Below, in pieces: positions 5,114-39,573 of a DNA stretch of 64,000 nt (its first letter is position 1; each line of letters starts with the position of its first letter). This DNA comes from Yuukianura sp. NJ FZ-2021. Its lineage: Eukaryota. The notes under the pieces were generated by a model. It was not told where the DNA came from. It was given only the letters and a program-made list of their open reading frames with translations, and ran no database searches. The stretch spans positions 8,866,001 through 8,930,000 of the forward strand of contig CM102283.1 of assembly GCA_046563655.1 (NCBI GenBank), read 5' to 3'. A program made the translations under genes and the position numbers.

Positions 5114-8100
5114 TTTGAGGAATTGGAATTTTAAAAAATTCAGCTGAAATTCAACTTTTGGATATATTTGGCTTGCCGAGGATTCACGCGTACTCTACCG
5201 TCTTGAAATGTCGGTCTCGTGAAAAATTGACCTGTTCTCTAACTTTTTGACGTGTCCAAATTTTTAAAAATTCACTTGTACACTTACTTTTTGAGGATTT
5301 GGAATTTTGAAAAATTCAGCTGAAATTCAACTTTTGGATATATTTGGCTTGCCGAGGATTCACGCGTACTCTACCGTCTTGAAATGTCGGTCTCGTGAAA
5401 AATTGACCTGTTCTCTAACTTTTTGACGTGTCCAAATTTTTAAAAATTCACTTGTACACTTACTTTTTGAGGATTTGGAATTTTGAAAAATTCAGCTGAA
5501 ATTCAACTTTTGGATATATTTGGCTTGCCGAGGATTCACGCGTACTCTACCGTCTTGAAATGTCGGTCTCGTGAAAAATTGACCTGTTCTCTAACTTTTT
5601 GACGTGTCCAAATTTTTAAAAATTCACTTGTACACTTACTTTTTGAGGATTTGGAATTTTGAAAAATTCAGCTGAAATTCAACTTTTGGATATATTTGGC
5701 TTGCCGAGGATTCACGCGTACTCTACCGTCTTGAAATGTCGGTCTCGTGAAAAATTGACCTGTTCTCTAACTTTTTGACGTGTCCAAATTTTTAAAAATT
5801 CACTTGTACACTTACTTTTTGAGGATTTGGAATTTTGAAAAATTCAGCTGAAATTCAACTTTTGGATATATTTGGCTTGCCGAGGATTCACGCGTACTCT
5901 ACCGTCTTGAAATGTCGGTCTCGTGAAAAATTGACCTGTTCTCTAACTTTTTGACGTGTCCAAATTTTTAAAAATTCACTTGTACACTTACTTTTTGAGG
6001 ATTTGGAATTTTGAAAAATTCAGCTGAAATTCAACTTTTGGATATATTTGGCTTGCCGAGGATTCACGCGTACTCTACCGTCTTGAAATGTCGGTCTCGT
6101 GAAAAATTGACCTGTTCTCTAACTTTTTGACGTGTCCAAATTTTTAAAAATTCACTTGTACACTTACTTTTTGAGGATTTGGAATTTTGAAAAATTCAGC
6201 TGAAATTCAACTTTTGGATATATTTGGCTTGCCGAGGATTCACGCGTACTCTACCGTCTTGAAATGTCGGTCTCGTGAAAAATTGACCTGTTCTCTAACT
6301 TTTTGACGTGTCCAAATTTTTAAAAATTCACTTGTACACTTACTTTTTGAGGATTTGGAATTTTGAAAAATTCAGCTGAAATTCAACTTTTGGATATATT
6401 TGGCTTGCCGAGGATTCACGCGTACTCTACCGTCTTGAAATGTCGGTCTCGTGAAAAATTGACCTGTTCTCTAACTTTTTGACGTGTCCAAATTTTTAAA
6501 AATTCACTTGTACACTTACTTTTTGAGGATTTGGAATTTTGAAAAATTCAGCTGAAATTCAACTTTTGGATATATTTGGCTTGCCGAGGATTCACGCGTA
6601 CTCTACCGTCTTGAAATGTCGGTCTCGTGAAAAATTGACCTGTTCTCTAACTTTTTGACGTGTCCAAATTTTTAAAAATTCACTTGTACACTTACTTTTT
6701 GAGGATTTGGAATTTTGAAAAATTCAGCTGAAATTCAACTTTTGGATATATTTGGCTTGCCGAGGATTCACGCGTACTCTACCGTCTTGAAATGTCGGTC
6801 TCGTGAAAAATTGACCTGTTCTCTAACTTTTTGACGTGTCCAAATTTTTAAAAATTCACTTGTACACTTACTTTTTGAGGATTTGGAATTTTGAAAAATT
6901 CAGCTGAAATTCAACTTTTGGATATATTTGGCTTGCCGAGGATTCACGCGTACTCTACCGTCTTGAAATGTCGGTCTCGTGAAAAATTGACCTGTTCTCT
7001 AACTTTTTGACGTGTCCAAATTTTTAAAAATTCACTTGTACACTTACTTTTTGAGGATTTGGAATTTTGAAAAATTCAGCTGAAATTCAACTTTTGGATA
7101 TATTTGGCTTGCCGAGGATTCACGCGTACTCTACCGTCTTGAAATGTCGGTCTCGTGAAAAATTGACCTGTTCTCTAACTTTTTGACGTGTCCAAATTTT
7201 TAAAAATTCACTTGTACACTTACTTTTTGAGGATTTGGAATTTTGAAAAATTCAGCTGAAATTCAACTTTTGGATATATTTGGCTTGCCGAGGATTCACG
7301 CGTACTCTACCGTCTTGAAATGTCGGTCTCGTGAAAAATTGACCTGTTCTCTAACTTTTTGACGTGTCCAAATTTTTAAAAATTCACTTGTACACTTACT
7401 TTTTGAGGATTTGGAATTTTGAAAAATTCAGCTGAAATTCAACTTTTGGATATATTTGGCTTGCCGAGGATTCACGCGTACCCTACCGTCTTGAAATGTC
7501 GGTCTCGTGAAAAATTGACCTGTTCTCTAACTTTTTGACGTGTCCAAATTTTTAAAAATTCACTTGTACACTTACTTTTTGAGGATTTGGAATTTTGAAA
7601 AATTCAGCTGAAATTCAACTTTTGGATATATTTGGCTTGCCGAGGATTCACGCGTACTCTACCGTCTTGAAATGTCGGTCTCGTGAAAAATTGACCTGTT
7701 CTCTAACTTTTTGACGTGTCCAAATTTTTAAAAATTCACTTGTACACTTACTTTTTGAGGATTTGGAATTTTGAAAAATTCAGCTGAAATTCAACTTTTG
7801 GATATATTTGGCTTGCCGAGGATTCACGCGTACTCTACCGTCTTGAAATGTCGGTCTCGTGAAAAATTGACCTGTTCTCTAACTTTTTGACGTGTCCAAA
7901 TTTTTAAAAATTCACTTGTACACTTACTTTTTGAGGATTTGGAATTTTGAAAAATTCAGCTGAAATTCAACTTTTGGATATATTTGGCTTGCCGAGGATT
8001 CACGCGTACTCTACCGTCTTGAAATGTCGGTCTCGTGAAAAATTGACCTGTTCTCTAACTTTTTGACGTGTCCAAATTTTTAAAAATTCACTTGTACACT

Positions 8101-8657
8101 TACTTTTTGAGGATTTGGAATTTTGAAAAATTCAGCTGAAATTCAACTTTTGGATATATTTGGCTTGCCGAGGATTCACGCGTACTCTACCGTCTTGAAA
8201 TGTCGGTCTCGTGAAAAATTGACCTGTTCTCTAACTTTTTGACGTGTCCAAATTTTTAAAAATTCACTTGTACACTTACTTTTTGAGGATTTGGAATTTT
8301 GAAAAATTCAGCTGAAATTCAACTTTTGGATATATTTGGCTTGCCGAGGATTCACGCGTACTCTACCGTCTTGAAATGTCGGTCTCGTGAAAAATTGACC
8401 TGTTCTCTAACTTTTTGACGTGTCCAAATTTTTAAAAATTCACTTGTACACTTACTTTTTGAGGATTTGGAATTTTGAAAAATTCAGCTGAAATTCAACT
8501 TTTGGATATATTTGCCTTGCCGAGGATTCACGCGTACTTTGCCGTCTTGAAATGTTGGTCTCGTGAAAAATTGACCTGTTCTCGTCACAAAAATTTTTGA
8601 CAAAATATAACTTTTACGTTTACTTTTCGAGGAATTCTAACTTGGGAAAATTCAGCT
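5114..8657. repeat. 176-bp satellite array, ~20 copies, almost perfectly homogeneous
   Basis: gatatatttgg recurs at 5161, 5337 ... 6041 (period 176). I saw one internal substitution (t>c at ~7482). The last copies (8514-8657) are diverged. Confidence 0.98.
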
Positions 8658-20289: not shown

Positions 20290-21652
20290 CTACCTTTTAG
20301 AAAAAGCACTCAATAGTTCAAGTGGAAGCGGAAATATAACTGTAGAGTTCTTTTCGGCTGCAATTGTGCCCAACGTTTGTAAATACCGCAACTGAAACCC
20401 AGAAAAATTACTAGAAACGTATTTTACGTTTTCGCTTTTGATTGTTTTGAAAATGTTACCTGAAGTGCTGCAGGACTAGCAACCATGACATCAGCTGCTT
20501 GTTTCAGCGCTTTGGAAGCATCCAGCTCACCCTCGGCAGCGATCACTTTAGCTCGAGCTTCTCGTGTCGCTTCGGCTTCAGCGGCCATAGCACGCTGCAA
20601 CTGCATTGGAAGTCGAACGTCTCGCATTTCCACTCTTTCCACTTGAACACCCCACGGGTCAGTGGCTTCATCCAGCAGCGTTTTCAATAAATCCGCAATC
20701 GCTTCACGTTCACTCAAGATTTCAGTAAGTTTCTTGGTTCCTAGAACATTTCGAAGTGTTGTTGAAGCTAGCAGCTGAGTAGCATTACTGAAATGGGCAA
20801 TACAAATTCAAACGTTATCAATCAGGCAAGTCATGAAATGTCTTTTTAGTACCCACCGATAGTCACCAACGTTAGCAACGGCGACAACTGGATTGAAAAC
20901 GCGATAGTAGATGACCGCATCTACTTGGACAGTCACCGAGTCACGTGTCAGAACCTATGAATTGTTTGAAATTTTATCGAAAACGTTTTGAAACGTTCTG
21001 CAACTTGACATTTTTTGAAACTTACTTCCTGTGGTGGAATGTCGTAGAACATTGTACGCAGGTCGACGCAACGATAATCGTCAAGACACGGAAGAATGAA
21101 AAACGTTCCAGGTCCACGAGCACCTAAAATTTCAAATAAATTTATTGGCGCCAAATCTCTGTTTTGAAATAATAGGTGGCGTGTTTGACCTCACCTCCAG
21201 TTCTAAGACGCCCGAGGCGAAAGATGATTGCTCGCTCATACTCTCTAACAACCTGCAAATTACACTTTACACAAAAAGTTTCAAAAATTTGCCGCTAAAA
21301 TTCAAAAATTAACCTTGAAGCAGAACCAAATAGAGATGGGAAATGTTAAGATCACGAGAACTGTACTGAAGAAAGCCGCCAGGCATTCCACAACCCCGCC
21401 ACCACCTCCTCCTCCGACTAAAATTTATTAAAAATCCGTAAATATGTAAATATAATTGTATAAATATTTAAAACATAAATATAATACATGCTTAAATTTT
21501 ATTGCTTTACTTGGTGTGTGAGTCTCGGACGTCCCTTTCTTAACATCGGATTTCGGTTGTTGCTGCTGAGGCGGTGGACGTTGTTGTTGCAATTCATTGC
21601 TGACTTGCGTCTGTGGCGCGAAGTTTTGTCTGGAGTTTGAAGGGTTCGCCAT
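20290..21652 (-). CDS. Stomatin / band-7 (SPFH) protein, paralogue A, 7 exons, 309 aa
   Basis: Exons 21652-21511, 21417-21314, 21252-21195, 21123-21026, 20954-20857, 20787-20460, 20391-20290; all introns GT-AG and in frame. Motifs: hydrophobic hairpin [73 protein letters not shown]. Confidence 0.95.
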
Positions 21653-21969
21653 TGTGTTAAATTGACGCCAAATATTTATGTCGCAAGAATCAACGTAAAC
21701 TTCAATGACCTTGAACGACGACGCATGACCGGACCTCGCCTCGGAATTGAGTCAAAAACGAAACGAAAACGAAGAATTGTAGCCTTGGTGACAACAAAAT
21801 TTTCCATAATATATCTTTATCATACAAATTGTGAAAAATTTACTTCAAATTTAAATTTTGAAAGTTTGTAATACTATAAAAATAGTTATTTTATAGTATA
21901 TATTATATGTTTATATAAAAATAGTTATTTTATAGTGACGTCGGTGGTTTCTTTCTTGTGTGAAGAAAC

Positions 21970-23340
21970 TTAGCGTCGAGCGAAAGGCGCCAAGAGGTCA
22001 ATCGGCAGCGGGAAAATAATTGTGGAGTTCTTTTCAGCAGCAATCGTCCCGAGAGTTTGCAAATAGCGCAACTGAAATCCAAATTTTCTCGTTTTTGAGT
22101 CAAATTCCGATATATTTTTTGGAAAATGTTACCTGAAGTGCTGCAGGACTGGCAACCATAACATCCGCAGCTTCTTTAAGCGCTTTAGAAGCATTCAGTT
22201 CACCCTCTGCAGCGATCACTTTAGCTCGAGCTTCTCGTGTCGCTTCGGCTTCAGCGGCCATAGCACGCTGCAACTGGGCTGGAAGTCGCACTTCGTTCAT
22301 TTCGACTCGTTCCACATCTACTCCCCAAGGTTCAGTAGCTTCATCCAAGGTTGATTTGATTGTTGTAGCAATATTTTCACGATCAGTCAACAGTTCAGTC
22401 AGCTTTTTAGTTCCGAGGACATTCCGAAGCATTGTGGAGGCCAGAAGTTGAGTTGAATTTCTGAAAGGCGGGAAAAATTTGAACTGAAACTGAAAATTTC
22501 AGCGACTGCGCATGTCACAAAACCGAACTTTGTAGCGACATACCGGAAGTCACCAACGTTGGCCACGGCGACAACTGGATTGAAAACGCGGTAGTAGATG
22601 ATTGCATCCACTTGAACCGTCACTGAATCATGTGTCAGAATCTAAAATTTTTCAGTTTTAGAAAAATTTGTTTCGAAATTTTATTTTTGTGAAAATAAAT
22701 TTTTGTAAACCTTACTTCTTGTGGTGGAATGTCGTAGAACATTGTGCGCAGGTCAACACAGCGGTAGTCGTCAAGACACGGAAGAATGAAAAACGTTCCA
22801 GGACCACGAGCACCTAAAATCAGTTTCAAAAAAGTCAAGGTCATCAATTTTTTTTTTAAATTTGAAGTGACCTTTGACCTCACCTCCACTACGAAGACGG
22901 CCCAGACGAAAGATGATTGCTCGCTCATACTCTCTGACAACCTGAAAAATTACATTTCCTTAAAAAGTGTTTAAAAATTTGGCACGATTTTTGAAAAGTG
23001 TTCGAAAACCTTGAAGCAGAACCAAATCGTGACTGGAAACGTCAAAATCACGAGAAGCGTGCTGAAAAAAACGGCCAGACATTCGACTATCCCGCCACCT
23101 CCACCTTCCACTAAAATTTAATTAAAAGTTAATTAATATTTTAATAATTTTTCTAAAACATCTTAATTTTAATGCTGTTCTTTGTGACTTACTTGCTTTG
23201 TGCGACTCCTTTACGTTCACATTTGGATTTGTGATTGGCTGTTGCGACTGCTGGCCCATTGGCGCCTGAGGTGCGTTAGGACCAGGTTCACCCTGCGGCG
23301 GACCACCAAAGTTTTGTCTCGAATATGCTGGAGTGGCCAT
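21970..23340 (-). CDS. Stomatin / band-7 (SPFH) protein, paralogue B, 7 exons, 310 aa
   Basis: Exons 23340-23193, 23110-23010, 22941-22884, 22813-22716, 22641-22544, 22460-22133, 22071-21970. Same intron positions and motifs as paralogue A. Confidence 0.95.
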
Positions 23341-24225: not shown

Positions 24226-25234
24226 TAAGGGTCGGAATCCGGATTTTGGCTCCGGATTCAAATCCAGATTTTTGACGGATTCGGATTATCCAAAATCCGG
24301 ATTTTTAAATACTGAAATCCGGATTTCTACGGATTTCAAGAGCTATTCGAGGGCATGTGTGGTATAAAAAAAAAATAGCCAACCTCAGATTTACTCAATT
24401 TCAGGGTTCGTAAAATATCGTATTTTGTATTGTTGTGCCAATGTTGTGCTAATGTTGTGCTAATGTTGTGCCAATGTTGTGCTAATGTTGTGCCAATGTT
24501 GTGCCAATGTTGTGCCAATGTTGTGCCAATGTTGTGCTAATGTTGTGCCAATGTTGAGCCAATGTTGTAATGTTGTGCCAATGTTGTGCCAATGTTGTAA
24601 TGTTGTGCCAATGTTGTAATGTTGTGCCAATGTTGTGCCAATGTTGTGCTAATGTTGTGCCAATGTTGTGCCAATGTTGTGCTAATGTTGTGCCAATGTT
24701 GTGCCAATGTTGTGCTAATGTTGTGCCAATGTTGAGCCAATGTTGTAATGTTGTGCCAATGTTGTGCCAATGTTGTAATGTTGTGCCAATGTTCTAATGT
24801 TGTGCCAATGTTGTGCTAATGTTGTGCCAATGTTGTGCCAATGTTGTGCTAATGTTGTGCCAATGTTGTGCCAATGTTGTGCTAATGTTGTGCCAGTGTT
24901 GTACCAATGTTGTAATGTTGTGCCAATGTTGTGCTAATGTTGTGCTAATGTTGTGCTAATGTTGTGCTAATGTTGTGCTAATGTTGTGCCAATGTTGTGC
25001 CAATGTTGTGCTAATGTTGTGCCAATGTTTCATTTTTTTTCAACACTAGTAATTTGATTCAAAAAATAAACACGCCGAATTTATCATCAAGGTTTTAGCT
25101 ACGAGTGTTTCCAACCTGCAATTCCGAGTTAACACAGAGATTGAAATCCGGATTTAAATCCGGATTTCAGGATTGAAATCCGTCAAAATCCGAAATCCGG
25201 ATTTTAAGAAACCCGTTCCGGATTCCGACCCCTA
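24226..25234. mobile_element. hAT-type non-autonomous element (MITE), 1009 bp
   Basis: TIRs taagggtcggaatccgga / tccggattccgaccccta. Perfect 8-bp TSD attgtaat (24218-24225, 25235-25242). Palindromic aaatccggattt motifs are repeated subterminally at both ends. Confidence 0.92.
24430..25030. repeat. 11-bp minisatellite (aatgttgtgcc/aatgttgtgct) with 8-bp variants (aatgttgt)
   Basis: Directly visible, about 55 units, inside the hAT element. It is the source of the spurious AQHWHN / LCQCC ORFs. Confidence 0.97.
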
Positions 25235-25820: not shown

Positions 25821-28800
25821 TTATGACTTGGCAGCCTCCCTGTCCCTGTCCGCTTTGGCCTGTCTCGCTCCGATAAAAGGAGCCAAGATGTCAATTGGAA
25901 TTGGAAAGATGATCGTCGAATTCTTTTCTGCAGATATCGTGTTCAGGGTTTGCAAATACCGCAACTGCAAATTAAAAAACGAAAAAGTTTTTTAGAAAAT
26001 GGAATTTTTAAAACCATTTTAAAATTCATTTTAAAAATTGAAAACCGAATCAAGCTTAACGGAGCCCTTGACATTAATAGAGCCCGCAAACTTGAGGTTA
26101 GAGACTCAAGGGCCGGTTTTAAAGTACTTGAGGCCCTTAAGTACCCTTTGCTTAAACAAGTTTGAAATTCGTACCTGAAGAGCAGCGGGACTTTCAATCA
26201 TGACATCAGACGCTTCTTTGAGGGCCCTTGACGCCTTCATTTCTCCCTCAGCAGCAATCACTTTCGCCCGAGCTTCACGAGCCGCTTCAGCTTCTGCTGC
26301 CATCGCTCGCTGCAACTGCACTGGCAGTCGAACATCCTTTCTGCAAAACAAAATCAGATTTTCAAAATTTCGAAAAAGGAATCACTCGAGTGTGGCACCT
26401 TGAGGCTACAAATTAAGCCGTTCAAAATGGAAAATCAAAATTTCGAAGTTCCCTGAGGCCCTTATTGACTAATGGAATTGTTCAACTGAGAAATAAAATT
26501 AAAATGTCTGCTTTCGAATTTTGTTCAAACAGGTTTCGAAAGTTGTGTTAACTTTTGTTTTCCAAAACTTTGGAAATTTTGTGGAATTGACTAAACAATT
26601 TTGTGGAATGGAGTTTGAATTTGAAATGGATTTTGGTGTTTACCGCTCCAGCGGAAATTGAGGGCACAAGAAACAATCGTTAGGCACAAAACAGAAGTAA
26701 ACAGACGAAGGCCAATTCCCAAGTTACTGAATAATTTAGAAATGGAAAATGGTAAAGTTTTGTGCTAGGGTTAAGTTAGGCTTTGTTATGTTAAGTTTTG
26801 AATTTGAACTTAAGAAGTCACAACTTTGAATTTTGGTGCTTACATTTCGACTCGCTCCACTTTGACCCCCCATGGATCCGTGGCTTCGTCCAATGAGCTC
26901 TGCATTGTGTGCGAAATGGACTCACGCTCCGACAAAATTTCCGCTAAATTTTTTGTTCCCAACACATTCCTGGAATCCATTAACAAAATTTTTAGCGTTA
27001 GCAATCCAAATTTTTTGAAAATCAAATTTTTTGAAAATTTTGTAAACTTACCGAAGCGTAGTTGCTGCAAGGAGTCGAGTCGAATGACTAAATAGAAAAC
27101 ACGGAATTACAAAATAAACGCTTTTACATTAGTATAAAAACAAAAATAGTCATTTTAAGCTGTTTTTAAGCGTGGAGGAAGAACGCGGTTATAAAAAAAT
27201 TTAAAAATCGCGGGGAAATCAAAAAAAGCAATTAAAGTTGGAAAAAAATGTTGCTTAGTTAAAGAAGCGGTTAAATTTGAATTTACCTGTAGTCAACGAC
27301 ATTAGACACGGCAACTGTGGGGTTATACACCCGATAGTAGACAACGGCATCCACTGCTACTGTCACAGAATCATGTGTCAGTATCTGTTAAGGTCAAGGG
27401 TCACAACAACGTTAGAAAAGTCACAACACTTTTAGCCAATCAAAATACGAAATCAATATTATTGAGTCGATTCAAAATATTATTCAAACAGCGCAAATTT
27501 TTGAATCAATTCTACTCAATAATTTTTTAGGTCGAAATGGGTTGAAATTTAATTTGAAACAAAAGCTGACCAATCCTACAATTACAAAAAATGTTGTGAA
27601 ATTTTTAGCACTTTGCAAACAGCTTTGAATTCCAAAAATTACGCTTAATTTTGGTAATTTCTTTAATTTTGCGTTTCATCTGTAATTCTTAGCAATTAAA
27701 AAAGTAGAACACCATTATTCTATTTTTCTTTCTACACACTAAACAAACGTTGCTGTAATCAATTTTAATTCAAGTTTTCAGTTTTGCCGCTTTATTCAAA
27801 ATATGTGTCGAAAATGAAGAAAAATGTAAAACTTTTGAAAAAATAGAAATCAAGTTCCTTTGATGGAAGCTCTTATTTGAGTTTTCAAAAGAGCGGGAAA
27901 CTAAAATAATTTAAACTCATTCAATAGCATTCCTTTTTCCGCCATTTGAAAATCAAACTCAATTTGAATTTTTTTCATACTCAACTCAGTTTCCCGCTTC
28001 TAATTTGATCCCATTTGTCTCAAATGAACTCAATTTAATTTAATTCTCACACTTCACATTCACTCTTGACACTGCTTGTCTAAATGACACTCCAATTTGC
28101 TTTCTCCACTTTCACCCCCTAAATCAATTTCAACTGTTCCTGATTTGATTTATAACACACACAATTTTTTTTGAAATTTTGAAAAAATTAATCAAATTTA
28201 AGTCGATGAATCCTGTCTGAAATCACTTATCACTTGTAACATGTGACAGTGATTTTTTAAACCAACTCCATATGTCATGTCACGTGTCAAATGTCACATG
28301 ACTTATTCTCTCCTAGGAAGACTAACTTCAAAATAGGCTAACAATAACTTATAGTCTTTTCTACTATAAGTTAGAATGACGTTGAGTTAGAGTGTTTAGT
28401 GACTGATAAGCAAAGGAGTGGCAGGGAGTGGGAAATTTCAAATTACTTTCACCAAATTTCAAATCAACACAAAAACCGTTTTTCCAAATTGACATTCCCA
28501 CACGATCGAAACTTGACTTTAACGCAATTTCGGAGAATAAGTGAAAGCAATTAAGGTTGACGCAAATGCCACCCAGGGGAATGTTAATACTTTTGGACAA
28601 TTGGCTCAAAATGGGTCACGGTTTGGCCAGAGCGGGAAAATTTAAGTTTTTAAGACTAAAAATCGATACCTGTAGTCTTCTACATTGTTTGTGGCCATAA
28701 TTGGATTATTTACGCGGTAATACACGACTGCATCAACACTTACAGTCACTGAGTCTCGAGACAACACCTGAGACAACCATTCAACTTTCAAATTTTACCG

Positions 28801-31800
28801 CCAGATTTTTCGAAATTTCCCACTCATGTATTTTTCCAAAATTTCCCGCCAATGTATTGTCCAAAATTTCCCACTCTTGTATTTTTCAAAATTTCTCACC
28901 TAGAATCTAAACCAACCTTTCTCCAAAACTCGCGAAACAAAAACCTTGTAAACAGGAAAAACTTTTTGCAAAGTTTTTAAAATTAAAAAAGCAAAAGTTG
29001 AACAAAATTTTGAAATTATTTATGCGATTGTAGGAAGAAAAAGTTCGTAAAATCCGAAGTGGGTCGCCTTTTCCGTTTCTCTTTTGTTCAAATTTCATAC
29101 CGAATGCACGTCCTGTGAAATGTGTGTCTATTTTTGGCCACCAGGGGAAAATCAATCGATCTAAACACTAAAACTTTAGCTGATCCAACATAACGTTAAA
29201 TGAAACAATCTACGCCTTCCGAAAGCAAAAAACGACCAAAAACAAAACAAAAAATGGAAAAGTTCCTTTCGTATCCAAATGTTGCAATTTATGGATCCAA
29301 AATCCCATTAGACAGATTAGAACTTTCGGAATTATTTAGAACCTCAATTGTAAATAATTTAATGAGACCACGGGCATTTTGGAAATGCGCACCACTAAAT
29401 TTTTCTTAGTTAGTAATTACCGTGCCAATCAAAACTTTTGTCTTCTCAGAATTGGCACTGCAGTGCAGAAGTTTGCAATTACATTTTTCCTTTGAATTTC
29501 TCAACTTGTTTTTTGTTTTTGGTTGTTCAACAATTTAGTTCCTGAAATTCCGCTTGTCTTCCGTTGACAAAAGACAAGGAAAGTTGAGTGTTTCTACTTG
29601 CCAAAAAAAAGCGCGGAAAGAACAAAGAAAAAAGTTAATTTGGGGTGACATACTTCTTGAGGTGGGACGTCAAAGGAAACTGTACGGAGGTCCACACAAC
29701 GGTAGGCATCGATACACGGCAGAATGAAAAAAATTCCGGGACCACGAGCTCCTACGAACAAAAGAAAGCGTGGGAAACATTAAATTTTTGGGGTCATTGA
29801 CCTCCAGAGTTCATTGACCTCGAGATCCATTGTACTTTCAAACATTTTCTATACTCCAGCTCATTTTCAAGGTCAATGAACTCCCGACTTCACTAGAGGT
29901 TATACTACTCATCATCAGTCAAGGTTTCGAGGTCATTGACCTCAGCAAATGTCATTGATCCCAGGAAAGGTCATTGACCCCAACAGCATTCGCCCAAGCA
30001 AAGGTTATTGGCCCCCGCAAAGGTCATTGGCCCTAGCCAAGGTCATTGACCCCAGCAAAGGTCATTGGCCCTAGCCAAGGTCATTGACCTTTCCCGATTT
30101 TTTGAAAATCAATGGCTTACCTCCACGGCGCAGTCGCCCGAGACGGAAAATGACAGCTCTCTCATACTCCTGAACCACCTGAAAAAGTTCAAACGGCGTG
30201 ATTGGTTCATGTTCAAATACTATGTTCAAACATGCATGTTCAAATAGAGAATGTAACGAAGCTTTTCAAACAAGGGAAATCCCATTTGGTTTCACGTGGA
30301 GCTCCTCTTTTATAAAATTTGTTCTGGTAAACAGACATGTTTTGGTCCGCTGCATGACGGTTTTGACGTGATCCGTCAAGGAATTGAGGCTCTGAGTTGA
30401 GTAATGGCGTCCCATCGGGATCCAGATCCAACTTCCACAAAGTGCACTTTATACATATGCCATGCTTTGACTAGGGGAAATCGTTATGAAGAAGAATGAG
30501 AGTTGGACTTTGTAGAGCGACGATGTCACTGCAGGAGGTGACTATTAGTGTCACTCACCTTGAAACAGAAGAAGATGGCGATGGGCAGAGTTAGAATGAG
30601 GAGCACAATTGAGCCAACGTTTGCTAAAACTTCGATGAATCCAGAGCCCTCTGGTTCAGCTGAAAACCAAACAGAAACCAAAAAACGTCAAAATTAATCA
30701 TTCAAAATCCACTCAAACTTAATTTCAAGTTTTGAGTTTTCAAATATTAAGCTTAGTCGATAACTCAAACTTCGCTTTTCAGAACTTCTATGATTTTCTA
30801 CGATTAGAAGCCCATTTTTTTTAAATGTTGTATCTTAGAGGCGTTTTTCTGTATTTTCGAAATAAGAACAAACTCAAAATTTGAATTGAAGCATTGTTCC
30901 AAAAATATAAATAAAAACGTGCATTTGAAAAAAGTGAAGTATTCGTATGCTAAATAAGAATTTATGACTTCAAAGGACCCATGAACTTTTCAGTGCTGAA
31001 AAACAAACATGCCCCAGAGACTGTGACACATTTTGCTCAAACAGTTACACTAACTTATTCCAATTTGGAACTGGAAGACGTTGACGATTCAACCCAGAAG
31101 TACCACGGCGGTACTAAATTTTCAATTCAACAAATTTCCCAAAAAAAATACAGCTTCTAAATTTGAAACAAAAAAAAACTGAAGAAAATGAACAAAATAC
31201 TCAACAGATCGAGGAGGCTGTGGAATTTTATCACCGCAACAAAACTAATTTTGAGAAAAACTAAAAAAAAAAAGACTTCAAAAATTTGACGCTTCAGAAA
31301 CAGCTAGGTCAACTAAATTTTAATTTATTAAAATCCGTCATCTGCCTAAACATGATTCGAATCTTGAAATTCAAATGTCAAATTTTGAAATTCAAAATTT
31401 CTGAAATGCAACCACTGGACTTTCTCTAATTAACAATTCATCTTCTGCGACTTTTGGTTCCAACTGTGCCTCTTCTAAAGCCAAACCACGCACTGGTTTT
31501 AGTCTTTTCAAAAACATAGTTTCATTTCTAGGCTTTTCAAAAACATGGGTTCATTTCAATAGGCTTTTCAGAAACATAGTCCTTATTAAAAACATAATCT
31601 CAGCTACGTTTTGGACGAAACCTAAATTATTCAGCAACCTGCTGACTTCAATTTCAGTTGAAACAGAATTACAACCAAACTTTCTCCTAAATCATTTCTG
31701 TCACTTTTGAAACTTCACTCCTCTTAAATCGTTAAATCCCATTTGTGTTATAGTCTAACCTTATTTTCTAAAATGTTTGCTCATTAGATGCTAAACGCAC

Positions 31801-34800: not shown

Positions 34801-37800
34801 AGCAGAGATTGATTTCAAAGTGTCAAATTTTGGATGGCTCAACTCCAATTTTACGTTTTCCAAAAATTTTTAGCGGGAACTTTGGTTTCCATCTTCCTTT
34901 TACAGCTTCTTTAAAAAAAGTCATAAAAGTTCACACATCTGCTTGAAATTGACGAGATCCATTTCTTTTGACAACTTTTAAAAACTCGCGTCTTCCAGAA
35001 CTTGATCATCATCATCTCCTTTGCTATTGCTTTTAACAATGGCGCCATATTTCAAATTTCAAACTCCGAAAAAGCAATGGACAAAAGATATCTAACGGTG
35101 GTAAGCCCGTGACAGCCACACAGCAGGTTCCCTTTAGTACAAAGAAGCTCCAAGATTTGAAAATGCCGCGAAGATTTGAAAATGCCGCGAAGATTTGAAA
35201 GTTATCGTGTAGCACCGCCGTTTCTACACGAGCACAGCAGGACACTGATCCCATTATTTTCAAATCTCAAAAGTTCTAACGTTCTCCACATTTTACGATT
35301 CAATATCATTCCTCTGCTTTAGACCTTGCGATTTTGGCGCCAATTTAATGCTTAATTTCATTTTGAATTTTGGCGCTTCTCAACTTTTCAAAAGATACGC
35401 CACATTCCTTTTGAAGAGATGTAAAGCCTAATGTTGACATAAAAAGTAAGAACGAGGCTTTGCTTAGATTTGAATTTGATCTGAATGTTTACACAGACAT
35501 GCAGGAATGCCATCACAGGATGGAAAAGAGTTAACTCCATGCGGGAGGGAAATTTCAAAATTCAAAATGCTGAAAACTACTACTGTAGGTGAAGCTTTTG
35601 ATAACTTTGTGTTCCAAGTGTACTAAACTTTATCTGCGTCTATTGTTATCCAGAAGGCGAGTTTTAGTCAGTTGACACCAACGAACCGTGGAAGAACGAG
35701 CGGAAAGGGCGAGGTTCATGTTTTTTGAATCTTCCGGACACGGAAACTCATAAATCAAAATGCGCACTTTCGAAATTTTAAAAATCTTTTTTTAAATTTT
35801 GATTCTTACAGTCTGCATTGGAAGTGTAGAGTTCCCTGCCATCGTGGCTAACAGGAAGAGGTCTCGAGGCGTCTTCACCTCGACGTGGAATTCTCTTGGC
35901 TGGATCTGATTGGTGGCTCATGGGGCCCATCGTCATGGGTTTCGGCTGGGCGGGACCCTCCTGCTGACCTTCCATGTTAACGGATGACCTTTGACCTTTG
36001 ACCTCTCACTGTCTTCTGCTGAAGGTCACTTGCTTTTCAACTAGCGGGAGAGAGGTATAACACTCAAAACCAAAACATCACTCACAAATAAAAATCACTT
36101 TTAAATAGTCAGGAATCGTAAAAGGGCCAACTGCAATTCCCAGTGAAAATTTCTCAAAAATGTCAAACTTTCAGGCAAACTGAAAACGGGCTCGAAATTT
36201 GAAATGCACTGATGTTGTGAGTCCAACATGCGTTTAAATTTAGCTCTCTCTAATCAAAACCAAGCTGGAAATGATTTGAGGACTTTAACATTAGTAGGTA
36301 TGAAGCAGACTGAAGCTTCGTAGCTGACTCAACACAAACTAACATAACCAGAACACGTAAACAATCCTTTCGACCGGTTGGAAAAAGCTTTTTAGAGCTC
36401 TCGCAGTCCAACTTTCATGAAAGTGTTGTTCAAAAAAAAGGCTATAACGTAAGCAACTGGTAAATTGCAGTATAAGGGAACTCTGGAAGGGGATTCTTGG
36501 TTAGGTTCACATACGCTTTTTTGTATTGATCTTCCTATGGCATGTTGAAAAGAAGCTCCCTATGGTCACAAATTATCGTTCGGCATGTACTCTAGGCCTA
36601 ATGTAAACTTAATGTCTACTCGAATGGTTCATGGACGGCGCAGTCTGTTATTCCAGTAACTGCTAAACCTTATACTTTAGCTTTTGTTAGTTTATGGATT
36701 CGAGGATGGGCTATGTATATGAAAACATAAGCTATGTTTATAAAAACATACGCTATGTATATGAAAACATAGGTTGGTGGTTTCAAGCGATTTGTTATGG
36801 CAAGAAACATGGTTGCAGGCAGCATGCAAATTGCATGACGAGGTTTGTGTACTGAGAATCACTCCCAAAATATCTTGCATGGACCTTGGACTATGACAAT
36901 TTTTAAACAAATATGAGAGTTACTGTCAAGGAAAAAAATACAGGAACTTTAAATCATAAAAGACTTTGTACATACTTAACTACCCTAAATGACAGACAAG
37001 AGTATTTCCAATGTGCAAATTTCAATAGAAAAAAGTCACAAAGATCATAAAGTCATGAGATTTCGAAATATCCTGTATGAGTCAACCAGAATTTCAGCCG
37101 TGTGACTTTTAGTAACTTCAAAATTTTGAGAAATTTCGATGAAACGCAAAAAAAAATTTACGTCAAATCTAATTTTTTGGTTTTTTAAGATTATTGTTTT
37201 GCGTAACAGGAAATCACGCCATTGATTTACAGTTTTTTGGATTAAAAGTGCTGCGTACTTCTAGAATTTTTTTGTGTAGAACTGTTTTGTTATTGGAGCA
37301 AATCTGATTGATTCATTTAGAAATTTTGTTGTTTTGTGAATTTTGATGTCAATCAAAGTCAATATCGGTTATCAATGTTACTGATACGCTTGAGTTGTAC
37401 TAAATGTCTCTTTGTTGTGGATTTGACCAGCCAAAATTGGCAGGCGCTTTGAAAAGCTATAAGTATCACTTTCTTGGGACAACCTTGAAGAAGCGGAAAA
37501 GTGAACGCCTTTGTCCTGTGCTGTCCCACAATTTATTTAAATGTTATTGATCCACTTTAGCCACTTTTGCTTAATCCACGTAGTCTAGAGAAAAAGGAAG
37601 TTTTAGACAACTTAAAAGACCAATTACGACAAAAAATTGAGACAAAACTATAAATTTTGTTCATTTTGAGTTTTAAATCGTTTGATGTCACCATTTTCTA
37701 AAGAGTCTCACAATTTCCGTTTTGGCTTCATAAAATATTTTTTGGCAACTCTATCCGGAACGCCACACACGAACCAGAAAAAAACTATGGACGCGATCTC

Positions 37801-39573
37801 TACTAAAAACTAATACTGAAGAACTCGTAGATTACGCAAAATGTAAACAGAAAACAGTTTTGAGTTCGATGCCTTTACCAATAATTCAAAAAGAATTTTA
37901 AAGTTGACATTTTTGACATTGTCAAAAAAAATTTTCATGATAAACAACTATACACTTGAAAATCGGCTCTTGGAATTTCCATTTTCAGAAAGAAATCATA
38001 ACACAAAAAAAATTATGACACAAAGTTTCCTGGTTTTTTCTTACCGAAAATACGTTTACTTAAACATTTTTGAGGGATTTACATTGAATTTATTTTCGTG
38101 AAATTTTGAAATTCTCCACTTTTTGCATTTTGACCTCGATTTGCATAAGAGATTGAACGCATGTCATCGGAAATTAAATATAAAGCGTCGTATATCCCTC
38201 CATGCTTTCTATGTTTTGAATCCAACCGAATTTTGAAATGGATCAATGATTGCGTGATGGACAAACTAAAAGCCCAAACGCAAAAAGTTTGTACAGATTT
38301 GTGATTGATAATGTGAGGCAAAAGCATCAACTTTTACCAAAAGCCGCCAAAAATTGACATTTGAAAAAACAGAAGTTACTTTTCGCATACTATTTTTGCA
38401 CTACAGGCGAGTAGAACTCCCAAAACTAAAACTTTTCGCAAAACTTTTGCTTTCTAATCAATTCAATCTCAAACCTTAAACTTTCTCCTCTACGTCAAAA
38501 ACATTCTACACTCCAAACAAAATTTGTCTGTCTGAAAAACTTCTAGAAAACAGTATTTTGAAAATCCTGACAATCTCTACTTGATCAAATCGTTACTCGC
38601 AGTTTTACGACAATCGTTTTAGAACTGTCGCAATTTGGGTAGAACTGAATCAGCACTTCCGAATCATAGCCACTCACTTTTGCAAGATTCAGACAAAAGA
38701 ATTTCAAAAAACCGAAAAAGAACAGAAAAAAGTTTAGTTTGTAAGACACGTAGGAGAAAGTGGATTCGTGGAGTTGTTTTCTTATAATTGGAAAAACTAG
38801 GATAATTGAACCCCTGAGGGAAACAATCTTTCTTACTTTCTCTACTTTTTCCAACACATAGACTTTCTTTTTAGTCTTTTTTTTTTTCGAAAAAAAAAAT
38901 TCCCGCCAAATCCACCCAGGGATCACCACTTTATCAAAAACCTTCTCAAAAATAAAATTTATGTTCTTCGCACGTCTACTAAATAACAATTTTGAAACAA
39001 GAATTCACGGCTATGCTTTCTCTCTCATTTTTATGTTCTTTCAGTCAATGTCTTTACTACTTTGCATATTTTTTTGAAAGTAGATTTGTAGAAATTCAAA
39101 TCCCAAAAGCATGTGTGTTCTGTTTTCAAAATATCATTCAACGTTCGATGAAACTAAAAATTTTATGCTCACATGCAAGTTTTTTTGAACAAGTCAAGTT
39201 TCATTTCCCACTGCAACGTTTGTTAAAAAAATGAAATCGTGCGCAATGCGAGTGCTTAAAAAGAAACTAAAGAAATCAAGAAAAAAAGTCTATGTGAAAG
39301 AAGTGAGTTTCGAAGTTTTGTAAAACTTTTTTGTCAGTTCCAGAAAGTGCTGTTCCCTGTCTAACTTTTTTGAAAAAGTAACTTTTTTGAAAGTGTTTTA
39401 TGAAAATTAAAAAAAAGTGTGTTATTACCTTCGAATGATGCATCGTATCCAGTTACAGATCTTCTTTGTTGTGAAGATTCCGGTGGCCCTAGATTGATGG
39501 ACCCCTTGGGCATGACAACCTCAGTCATCTCGGCCATTGGAACGTCTAAATCTGGAGCTCCTAAAAAATCCAT
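25821..39573 (-). CDS. Large stomatin / mec-2-like gene (paralogue C) with alternative first exons and mutually exclusive exons, ~316-330 aa
   Basis: Core exons 30659-30559, 30178-30121, 29751-29654, [28767-28670 OR 27384-27287], 27087-27052, 26969-26844, 26340-26175, 25964-25821; all GT-AG and in frame. Motifs [66 protein letters not shown]. Phase-1 first exons at 39573-39429, 35975-35810 and 31961-31838. Confidence 0.92.
27287..27384 (-). CDS. Stomatin C exon 5b (mutually exclusive): [33 protein letters not shown]
   Basis: 98 nt, cag acceptor, gtaaat donor, phase 0/2. Confidence 0.9.
28670..28767 (-). CDS. Stomatin C exon 5a (mutually exclusive): VLSRDSVTVSVDAVVYYRVNNPIMATNNVEDYS
   Basis: 98 nt, cag acceptor, gtatcg donor, phase 0/2, homologous to exon 5b. 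Not captured by the ORF track. Confidence 0.9.
28795..28898. repeat. Degenerate ~25-bp tandem repeat, ~4 copies
   Basis: aaatttcccactcatgtatttttcc / aaatttcccgccaatgtattgtcc / aaatttcccactcttgtatttttc. Confidence 0.7.
29791..30090. promoter_or_regulatory. Intronic cluster of IR-1 nuclear-receptor palindromes (EcRE consensus RGKTCANTGAMCY), partly as a 19-bp minisatellite
   Basis: Consensus matches start at 29791, 29808, 29870, 29930, 29968, 30040 and 30078; variants at 29949, 30002, 30021 and 30059. Function is inferred. Confidence 0.6.
31500..31582. repeat. ~30-bp tandem repeat, ~3 copies
   Basis: taggcttttcaaaaacat(a/g)gtttcatttc-like units. Confidence 0.7.
31838..31961 (-). CDS. Candidate proximal alternative first exon of stomatin C (MPETFLEPGQELGESSKSFISILVPTLKRPPNRDEVTLNFD)
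   Basis: tcaaaATG context, open 41 codons + 1 nt, donor gtggga. Phase matches the exon starting at 30659. Inr-like TCAGTT ~350 bp upstream. Confidence 0.55.
35152..35200. repeat. 19-bp tandem repeat (aagatttgaaaatgccgcg) x2.6
   Basis: Directly visible. Confidence 0.85.
35810..35975 (-). CDS. Alternative first exon of stomatin C (MEGQQEGPAQPKPMTMGPM...ELYTSNAD)
   Basis: ATG with an in-frame stop upstream, GC-rich coding-like island, donor gtaaga. 55 codons + 1 nt; phase matches the exon at 30659. P/Q-rich like exon 1 of paralogues A and B. Confidence 0.75.
36710..36772. repeat. 21-bp tandem repeat x3 (ctatgtatatgaaaacata..)
   Basis: Directly visible. Confidence 0.85.
39429..39573 (-). CDS. 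Distal alternative first exon of stomatin C (MDFLGAPDLDVPMAEMTEVVMPKG...GYDASFE)
   Basis: Coding-like island, donor gtaata, 48 codons + 1 nt; phase matches the exon at 30659. Confidence 0.65.

Follow-up and report, generated by a model that had tools for sequence, protein, structure and literature searches.

We describe a pair of alternative exons in a gene on the minus strand of a 64,000-nucleotide (nt) stretch of the genome of the springtail Yuukianura sp. NJ FZ-2021 (contig CM102283.1, positions 8,866,001 to 8,930,000), called the window below. The gene is of the stomatin type, with an SPFH/Band 7 domain, and the two exons, A and B, very probably form a genuine two-member cluster of mutually exclusive exons that arose by ancient tandem duplication of one exon. 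Coordinates are positions within the window, and exon boundaries were checked by script. An initial annotation of this DNA had proposed that the SPFH domain of a mec-2-like, that is stomatin-like, gene contains mutually exclusive exons. The frame logic of the exons and the isoforms of orthologous genes, both set out below, support that proposal.

Exons A and B are of equal length; each begins in phase 0 and has 2 nt left after its last full codon. The split codon AG|T, shared with the downstream exon e5, supplies the serine (S) that ends both of the peptides quoted by the initial annotation. Those peptides, together with two homologous 98-nt exons of the same phase and with intact splice sites, were reproduced exactly from the window. 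The spacing of 1.3 kilobases agrees with the length of the intervening intron, and the four splice junctions that had been listed (29654>28767, 29654>27384, 28670>27087 and 27287>27087) are all correct. No other exon lies between A and B, and a tblastn search of the gene's introns to E = 10 found no third copy. Both exons align to positions 53-81 of the Pfam Band_7 profile. The sequence features by which mutually exclusive exons are predicted in the excerpted text of PMC3923563, namely neighbouring position, similar length, homology, compatible splice sites and a common reading frame, were all found in this pair.

With exon A as query, tblastn finds exon B in the window at E = 7e-12. The two copies share 61 of 98 nt and 22 of 32 amino acids. 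Their differences are distributed over codon positions 1, 2 and 3 as 8/6/23, so that 23 of the 32 third positions differ while most residues are the same, just as had been noticed earlier. Of the 32 codons, seven are the same in both exons, 15 carry synonymous differences only and 10 encode different residues. The proportion of synonymous differences (pS) is 0.89, which is saturated, and the proportion of nonsynonymous differences (pN) is 0.22. This is the codon pattern of an old duplication in which both copies have been held under purifying selection.

Since each alternative exon has a length of 3n+2, only mRNAs that contain exactly one of them keep the frame. When the exons were joined by script, A alone or B alone left the frame open through to the normal stop codon in the last exon, e8. 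Joining A to B produced a stop within exon B and skipping both produced one in e6; these stops lie 419 nt and 244 nt, respectively, upstream of the last junction. The use of both exons or of neither thus ends in an early stop, which bears out the claimed frame shift. In the mechanism that we propose, the pre-mRNA would join e3 to either A or B and then to e5. Transcripts with both exons or with neither would meet the early stop and would be expected to be degraded, or else to yield a truncated protein. The reading frame, and decay of the wrong combinations if it takes place as we infer, would in this way enforce the use of exactly one exon. For Yuukianura sp., the splicing of A and B, the decay and any effect on function are predictions.

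Two other means of exclusion described in the available portions of PMC6071210 are steric hindrance across a very short intron and a mixture of U2- and U12-type splice sites. Steric hindrance between the splice sites of A and B was rejected, as an intron of 1285 nt is too long for it to apply, and U2/U12 incompatibility was rejected because every splice site is GT-AG. The donor of exon A, GTATCGAT, departs from the U12 consensus.

The relatives of the gene carry the same two forms. In the springtail Folsomia candida, isoforms X1 (XP_021950741.1, B form) and X2 (XP_021950742.1, A form) are both 338 amino acids long and differ at 11 positions, all of them within residues 159-188. Exon B of the window is identical to Folsomia X1 and to the Orchesella protein P0122 over the whole segment (32/32) and to the partial Allacma protein P0008 over 23 of 23 residues; exon A matches Folsomia X2 at 28 of 32 residues and the Daphnia A-type at 31 of 32. 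All eight same-length RefSeq isoform pairs examined, which come from seven hexapod species (Folsomia, Periplaneta, Macrosteles, Lycorma, Thrips, Rhodnius and, with two pairs, Cimex), differ only inside this segment, by 11-17 residues each. In Daphnia pulex, isoforms X10 (B) and X11 (A) show no mismatches 3' of the exon and differ in their N-termini. Both exons, for which the initial annotation had suggested a search of orthologues, are therefore conserved in relatives, and neither is the unconserved copy that it had allowed for. Its description of the pair as hidden holds for the window, where the pair is real, but not more generally, as both forms are annotated in relatives.

Three read-through gene models contain both copies in tandem, and in two of the three the first copy is clearly of the A type. 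Daphnia magna P0148 has an A-type followed by a B-type segment, the order found in the window, and P0104 of the stick insect Timema has an A-type segment followed by the second form typical of insects. In P0006 of the copepod Tigriopus kingsejongensis, a divergent first copy that does not match the A-type pattern precedes a B-type copy. A search of the region with the A form found A-type proteins in Daphnia, Artemia, copepods, decapods and hemimetabolous insects. No holometabolan is among the named matches to the A form, and Hymenoptera, a beetle and a butterfly appeared with the insect second form only. The A exon may have been lost in Holometabola or missed in their annotation; either would explain why it is absent from exon catalogues centred on Drosophila. 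The chelicerate and millipede proteins examined have a single, B-like form that agrees with window exon B at 25 of 32 residues and with exon A at 22 of 32 (hand count). Taken together, the isoform pairs, the tandem models and the distribution of A-type proteins place the duplication, as it appears, at or before the base of Pancrustacea, and the pair would then predate the radiation of crustaceans and hexapods.

Among 345 fetched proteins, sorting of the segment by sequence pattern gave 90 of the A type, 69 of the B type, 34 of the insect second type, 64 of a 'NAT' type and 47 others. We also inspected 27 compact contigs (0.9-2.6 kilobases, mostly coding) that were hand-picked from the match tables. 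Every one holds exactly one copy of the segment (15 A, 10 B, one insect-type and one other), and they are most simply read as spliced mRNAs. With the Folsomia protein as query, a metagenome scan yielded 80 loci, each of them a continuous and apparently intron-less match and none a source of orthologous introns; by pattern, 75 of the 80 hold one copy and five hold none, and only five are of the A or B type.

Several points weigh against a mutually exclusive pair with an effect on the protein. The evidence from Yuukianura sp. itself is genomic sequence alone, and the RefSeq XP_ isoforms are model predictions. The Daphnia isoforms differ outside the segment too, so that their testimony is less clear-cut than that of the hexapod pairs. 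In insects, the second exon (..EPLNAVV..NYS) is quite unlike the B form of springtails and crustaceans, so that its orthology to B rests on position and order only. Lastly, an effect on the hydrophobic pocket, discussed below, is inferred from mouse stomatin.

Two side observations concern the crustacean proteins. The Daphnia B-type segment occurs within one species in two versions that are one residue apart (..RVHNPT.. in P0155/P0157/P0159, ..RVQNPT.. in P0162/P0164/P0169). The two groups of proteins also differ elsewhere, up to the C-terminus, and the second version could stem from a third alternative exon or from a paralogue. In the copepod protein P0006, in addition, the last conserved segment (LRYLQTL...STIIFP..) occurs twice in succession, a possible sign of another exon duplication, or of a fused gene, in copepods.

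We considered whether the choice between A and B might be set mainly by pairing of intronic RNA, by which exon A would be looped out and splicing directed to B, with the reading frame and decay serving as a backstop. We regard this as unlikely, while worth setting out. Exon A is flanked by GGGAAAUUU repeats with inverted copies: the four tandem units upstream of it have counterparts at two sites downstream (see the table). The repeat motif has 26 matches in the window where 11.45 are expected, a count reached by none of 100 shuffles, and six of the 26 fall within 470 nt around exon A. Inverted pairs that match at 16 or more of 17 positions over a span of at most 700 nt number five in the window and enclose 2.1% of it; one of them encloses A and none encloses B. 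At 14 of 14 positions there are three such pairs, which enclose 0.7%. Folds of minimum free energy pair the repeat arms around exon A, and a general docker/selector model of exon choice is described in the excerpts of PMC6071210. However, the fold energies are no better than those of shuffled sequences (z = -0.14 and z = -0.66, where 41 and 28 of 100 shuffles, respectively, fold equally well), and the best duplex between the flanks of exon A is equalled by 18 of 233 decoys taken from real sequence. The pairing arms are rich in A and U, exon B has no comparable element around it, and the inverted-pair test for exon A is post hoc.

Set against a docking/selector arrangement, complementary repeats bracket A only, a single 14/15 pair links the region upstream of A with that downstream of B (its upstream partner, 28787-28801, lies 20-34 nt before the acceptor of exon A), and the energies are no better than those of controls. 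The inverted repeat of 14-17 base pairs that brackets exon A is a weak hint at RNA looping. Another of the five strong inverted pairs (16/17; 29231-29247 with 29511-29527) lies inside the intron upstream of exon A.

The exon choice could also be hard-wired to alternative promoters or N-terminal exons and so not be regulated independently. At least two candidate N-terminal exons are present in the gene (35820-35897 and 39430-39558), and the six isoforms listed for Folsomia have different N-termini, with five of the six carrying B. Yet Folsomia X1 and X2 have the same N-terminus and carry B and A, respectively, and in Cimex both exon forms occur with each of the two protein lengths, 312 and 291 amino acids. 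Such coupling is very improbable in view of these pairs. That A or B is a decaying relic of the duplication which is never used is hardly credible at all: the polypyrimidine tract of exon A is the weakest in the gene (9/20), but in both exons the AG/GT sites are intact and the frame is open, their synonymous sites are saturated while residues are conserved, B is fully identical to proteins of two other springtail genera and A nearly so to Daphnia, and both forms are annotated as isoforms in the seven hexapod species.

The assignment of the gene to the stomatin family draws on several comparisons. Its closest database proteins are those of springtails, namely a partial protein of Allacma fusca (segments 93-100% identical) and proteins of Orchesella dallaii and Folsomia candida. 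The exon pieces of the window match Band_7 (PF01145) collinearly at profile positions 21-50, 53-81, 101-140 and 143-175, with one piece above the cut-off. The Folsomia orthologue scores 133 bits against the same profile, and its alignment with the human stomatin chain 9oh9_A has an E-value of 9e-118. In human stomatin, the sections of PMC12344292 at hand describe a conserved hairpin proline, P47, and the palmitoylated cysteines C53 and C87. Folsomia P98, C104 and C138 are aligned with ...LTLPIAIFFCFK and ...FFILPC... of the window; P98 and C138 (Folsomia numbering) are invariant in an alignment of 37 sequences. The N-terminal hydrophobic hairpin with its conserved proline, together with the palmitoylated cysteines of the stomatin type, is accordingly found in this gene. 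RefSeq names genes of this kind 'band 7 protein AGAP004871', and the authors of the Folsomia genome use 'Mechanosensory protein 2'. The label 'mec-2-like' was a fair one.

The exons and the candidate regulatory elements are listed in the table. All exons of the series e1-e8, A and B included, have AG acceptors and GT donors. The constitutive exon e3 is likewise exactly 98 nt long, yet it is not homologous to A or B. A 19/38-nt tandem repeat at 29930-30089 lies in the intron between e2 and e3.

Table. Exons of the stomatin-type gene and candidate elements near the alternative pair, with positions in the window
Feature	Position	Strand	Description
Probable alternative N-terminal coding exon	39558-39430	minus	matches Orchesella P0122 residues 27-75 (tblastn E = 7.5e-10); boundaries approximate
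Probable N-terminal coding exon	35897-35820	minus	matches Folsomia residues 43-68 (tblastn E = 1.6e-5); boundaries approximate
e1	30659-30559	minus	101 nt; hydrophobic hairpin (…IVLLILTLPIAIFFCFK)
e2	30178-30121	minus	58 nt
e3, constitutive, upstream of the pair	29751-29654	minus	98 nt; ARGPG...DVPPQE; ends in phase 0
Four tandem units of ~25 nt	28919-28805	minus	sense core GUGGGAAAUUU; 38-152 nt upstream of exon A; candidate pairing or regulatory element
Exon A, alternative	28767-28670	minus	98 nt, 32 codons + 2 nt; AG/GT sites; open frame; peptide VLSRDSVTVSVDAVVYYRVNNPIMATNNVEDY
Intron separating A from B	28669-27385	minus	1285 nt
Second inverted copy of the repeat	28653-28629	minus	sense ..AAAUUUUCCCGCUCU; 17-41 nt downstream of the exon A donor
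Inverted copy of the repeat core	28442-28426	minus	228-244 nt downstream of exon A; pairs with 28809-28825 at 16/17, 14 of them consecutive and perfect
Exon B, alternative	27384-27287	minus	98 nt, 32 codons + 2 nt; AG/GT sites; open frame
15-nt element	27281-27267	minus	6-20 nt downstream of the exon B donor; 14/15 complementary to 28787-28801
e5, constitutive, downstream of the pair	27087-27052	minus	36 nt; (S)HSTRLLAATTLR
e6	26969-26844	minus	126 nt; 25.6 bits against Band_7 (cut-off 23.6)
e7	26340-26175	minus	166 nt; ...PAALQ
e8, last coding exon	25964-25821	minus	144 nt, stop codon included

We mapped the alternative segment onto known stomatin structures, as the initial annotation had suggested for the differing residues. 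Folsomia residue n corresponds to stomatin residue n-51, according to an alignment free of gaps with both the mouse 86-213 crystal chain and the human chain; the numbering was anchored at K55, E59, R67, R70, C87, D89, R97, L109, Y124, T182 and W185. P47, C87, D89, R97, L109, Y124, T182 and W185 are invariant or nearly so among the 37 aligned sequences. The alternative exon encodes stomatin residues 108-139, that is strand beta2, helix alpha1 and the start of helix alpha2. The AlphaFold model (Folsomia numbering) places beta2 at 168-177, alpha1 at 180-186 and alpha2 at 190-206. Its mean predicted local distance difference test score (pLDDT) is 58, with block means of ~74-89 over residues 171-250, 55 for 161-170 and less than 50 for 111-164. 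The first nine residues of the exon are without a reliable secondary-structure call because of the low pLDDT at 111-164.

According to the excerpted text of PMC3433786, mouse stomatin has a hydrophobic pocket that is needed for inhibition of ASIC3 and is formed by F101, Y124, V126, I136, L178 and T182; movements of alpha1, alpha2 and beta2 close this pocket, and L109 and Y123 are contacts of the crystal oligomer. For human stomatin, the portions of PMC13724742 available describe a pocket, situated between SPFH1 and SPFH2, that takes up F19 of the protein's own N-terminal loop; this may or may not be the pocket known from the mouse. The equivalents of L109, Y123, Y124, V126 and I136 are the same in exons A and B. 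The ten differences lie at stomatin positions 108, 110, 111, 117, 127, 130, 131, 133, 134 and 137, half of them on or beside alpha1, and a type signature can be followed across taxa (A, ...P-x-M-A-T-N-N...; B, ...N-P-T-[IV]-A-[VI]-S-N...). Most of the residues that distinguish the forms thus belong to helix alpha1 or its immediate surroundings, close to the hydrophobic pocket, and the residues lining the pocket are shared. The earlier suggestion that the switch alters the SPFH surface is plausible. Since pocket and contact residues are shared and the type-specific residues sit mainly at alpha1, the switch would most likely retune the pocket, or a contact of the stomatin ring with a neighbour or partner, and not the fold, by analogy with the mammalian protein.

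Downstream of the main gene follow two more genes of stomatin-like type, arranged in tandem at 20302-21403 and 21943-23108 on the minus strand, with short introns and partly fused exons. Each has one copy of the exon (20954-20859 and 22641-22546), nearer to B (24/32) than to A (23/32 and 19/32). A similar form, 'ILTHDAVTV...', is carried by Orchesella P0153 and two unnamed proteins. These observations suggest that the tandem genes are paralogues derived from a B-type gene or transcript. The window further contains a satellite at 5114-8583 (176-nt units, 19.7 copies, 99% matches) and, ~0.8 kilobases downstream of the main gene's stop codon, an 11-nt tandem repeat (TGTTGTGCCAA, 56 copies) at 24431-25029.

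How does the pair compare with known systems? The nearest counterpart is Folsomia X1/X2, which belongs to the same gene family, has the same alternative segment and has flanking exons that are 93-100% identical. It differs in coming from another species, with its own C-terminal tail and N-terminus, and is known from annotation models. The arthropod clusters of Dscam1, Mhc, 14-3-3zeta and MRP1, as presented in excerpts of PMC6071210 and PMC3923563, likewise consist of neighbouring, homologous exons of equal length and phase that encode the same structural element. Unlike Dscam1-type clusters, the pair described here has only two variants, its 3n+2 length alone forbids the use of both or neither, and a docking/selector system is not established for it. 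Caenorhabditis elegans mec-2 is also a stomatin-family gene diversified by regulated splicing, with neuron-type-specific isoforms that have their own sensory functions. Its variation is, in contrast, C-terminal (an alternative 3' splice site and a large cassette exon), the stomatin domain is constant, and an exon pair in the SPFH core is not part of the account given in the sections of PMC8934639 at hand. Exons A and B encode the equivalents of L109, Y123, Y124, V126 and I136 along with alpha1 of the mouse stomatin 86-213 structure and the human stomatin 16-mer, as far as these are covered by the excerpts of PMC3433786, PMC12344292 and PMC13724742. Function has been described for the mammalian protein, whereas the arthropod pair is known from sequence.

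The full-text literature searched, which left out the supplements of catalogues of mutually exclusive exons, contained no description of the exon pair. We know of no splicing variation of the segment 108-139 in mammalian stomatin genes. The coverage of the Kassiopeia database is limited to 12 Drosophila species, Arabidopsis, C. elegans and human. Duplicated exons that are used in a mutually exclusive way are commonplace in arthropods, and A and B are already present among the RefSeq isoforms of several relatives; the pair thus adds a member to a known kind of exon cluster.

A more far-reaching proposal is that the A/B switch exchanges helix alpha1 next to the hydrophobic pocket, so that a single gene of pancrustaceans would assemble stomatin cages of two sorts, or mixed ones, that gate the pocket differently and hence serve different channel or transporter clients, and that an RNA stem which loops out A makes the choice of exon. 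We consider this distinctly improbable. If it were true, the two isoforms would represent an experiment of nature, about half a billion years old, on the selection of partners by SPFH rings. For genome annotation, the preferred reading, that A and B are mutually exclusive exons of one stomatin-type gene, means that the two should be kept as two isoforms of that gene, with neither of them discarded and the two not fused. Within the otherwise nearly invariant SPFH core, no other part than the one marked by the pair has been retained by pancrustaceans in two versions. As the paired segment coincides with alpha1 and beta2 beside the ASIC-modulating pocket of mouse stomatin, it offers research on stomatin and mechanosensation a natural pair of variants.

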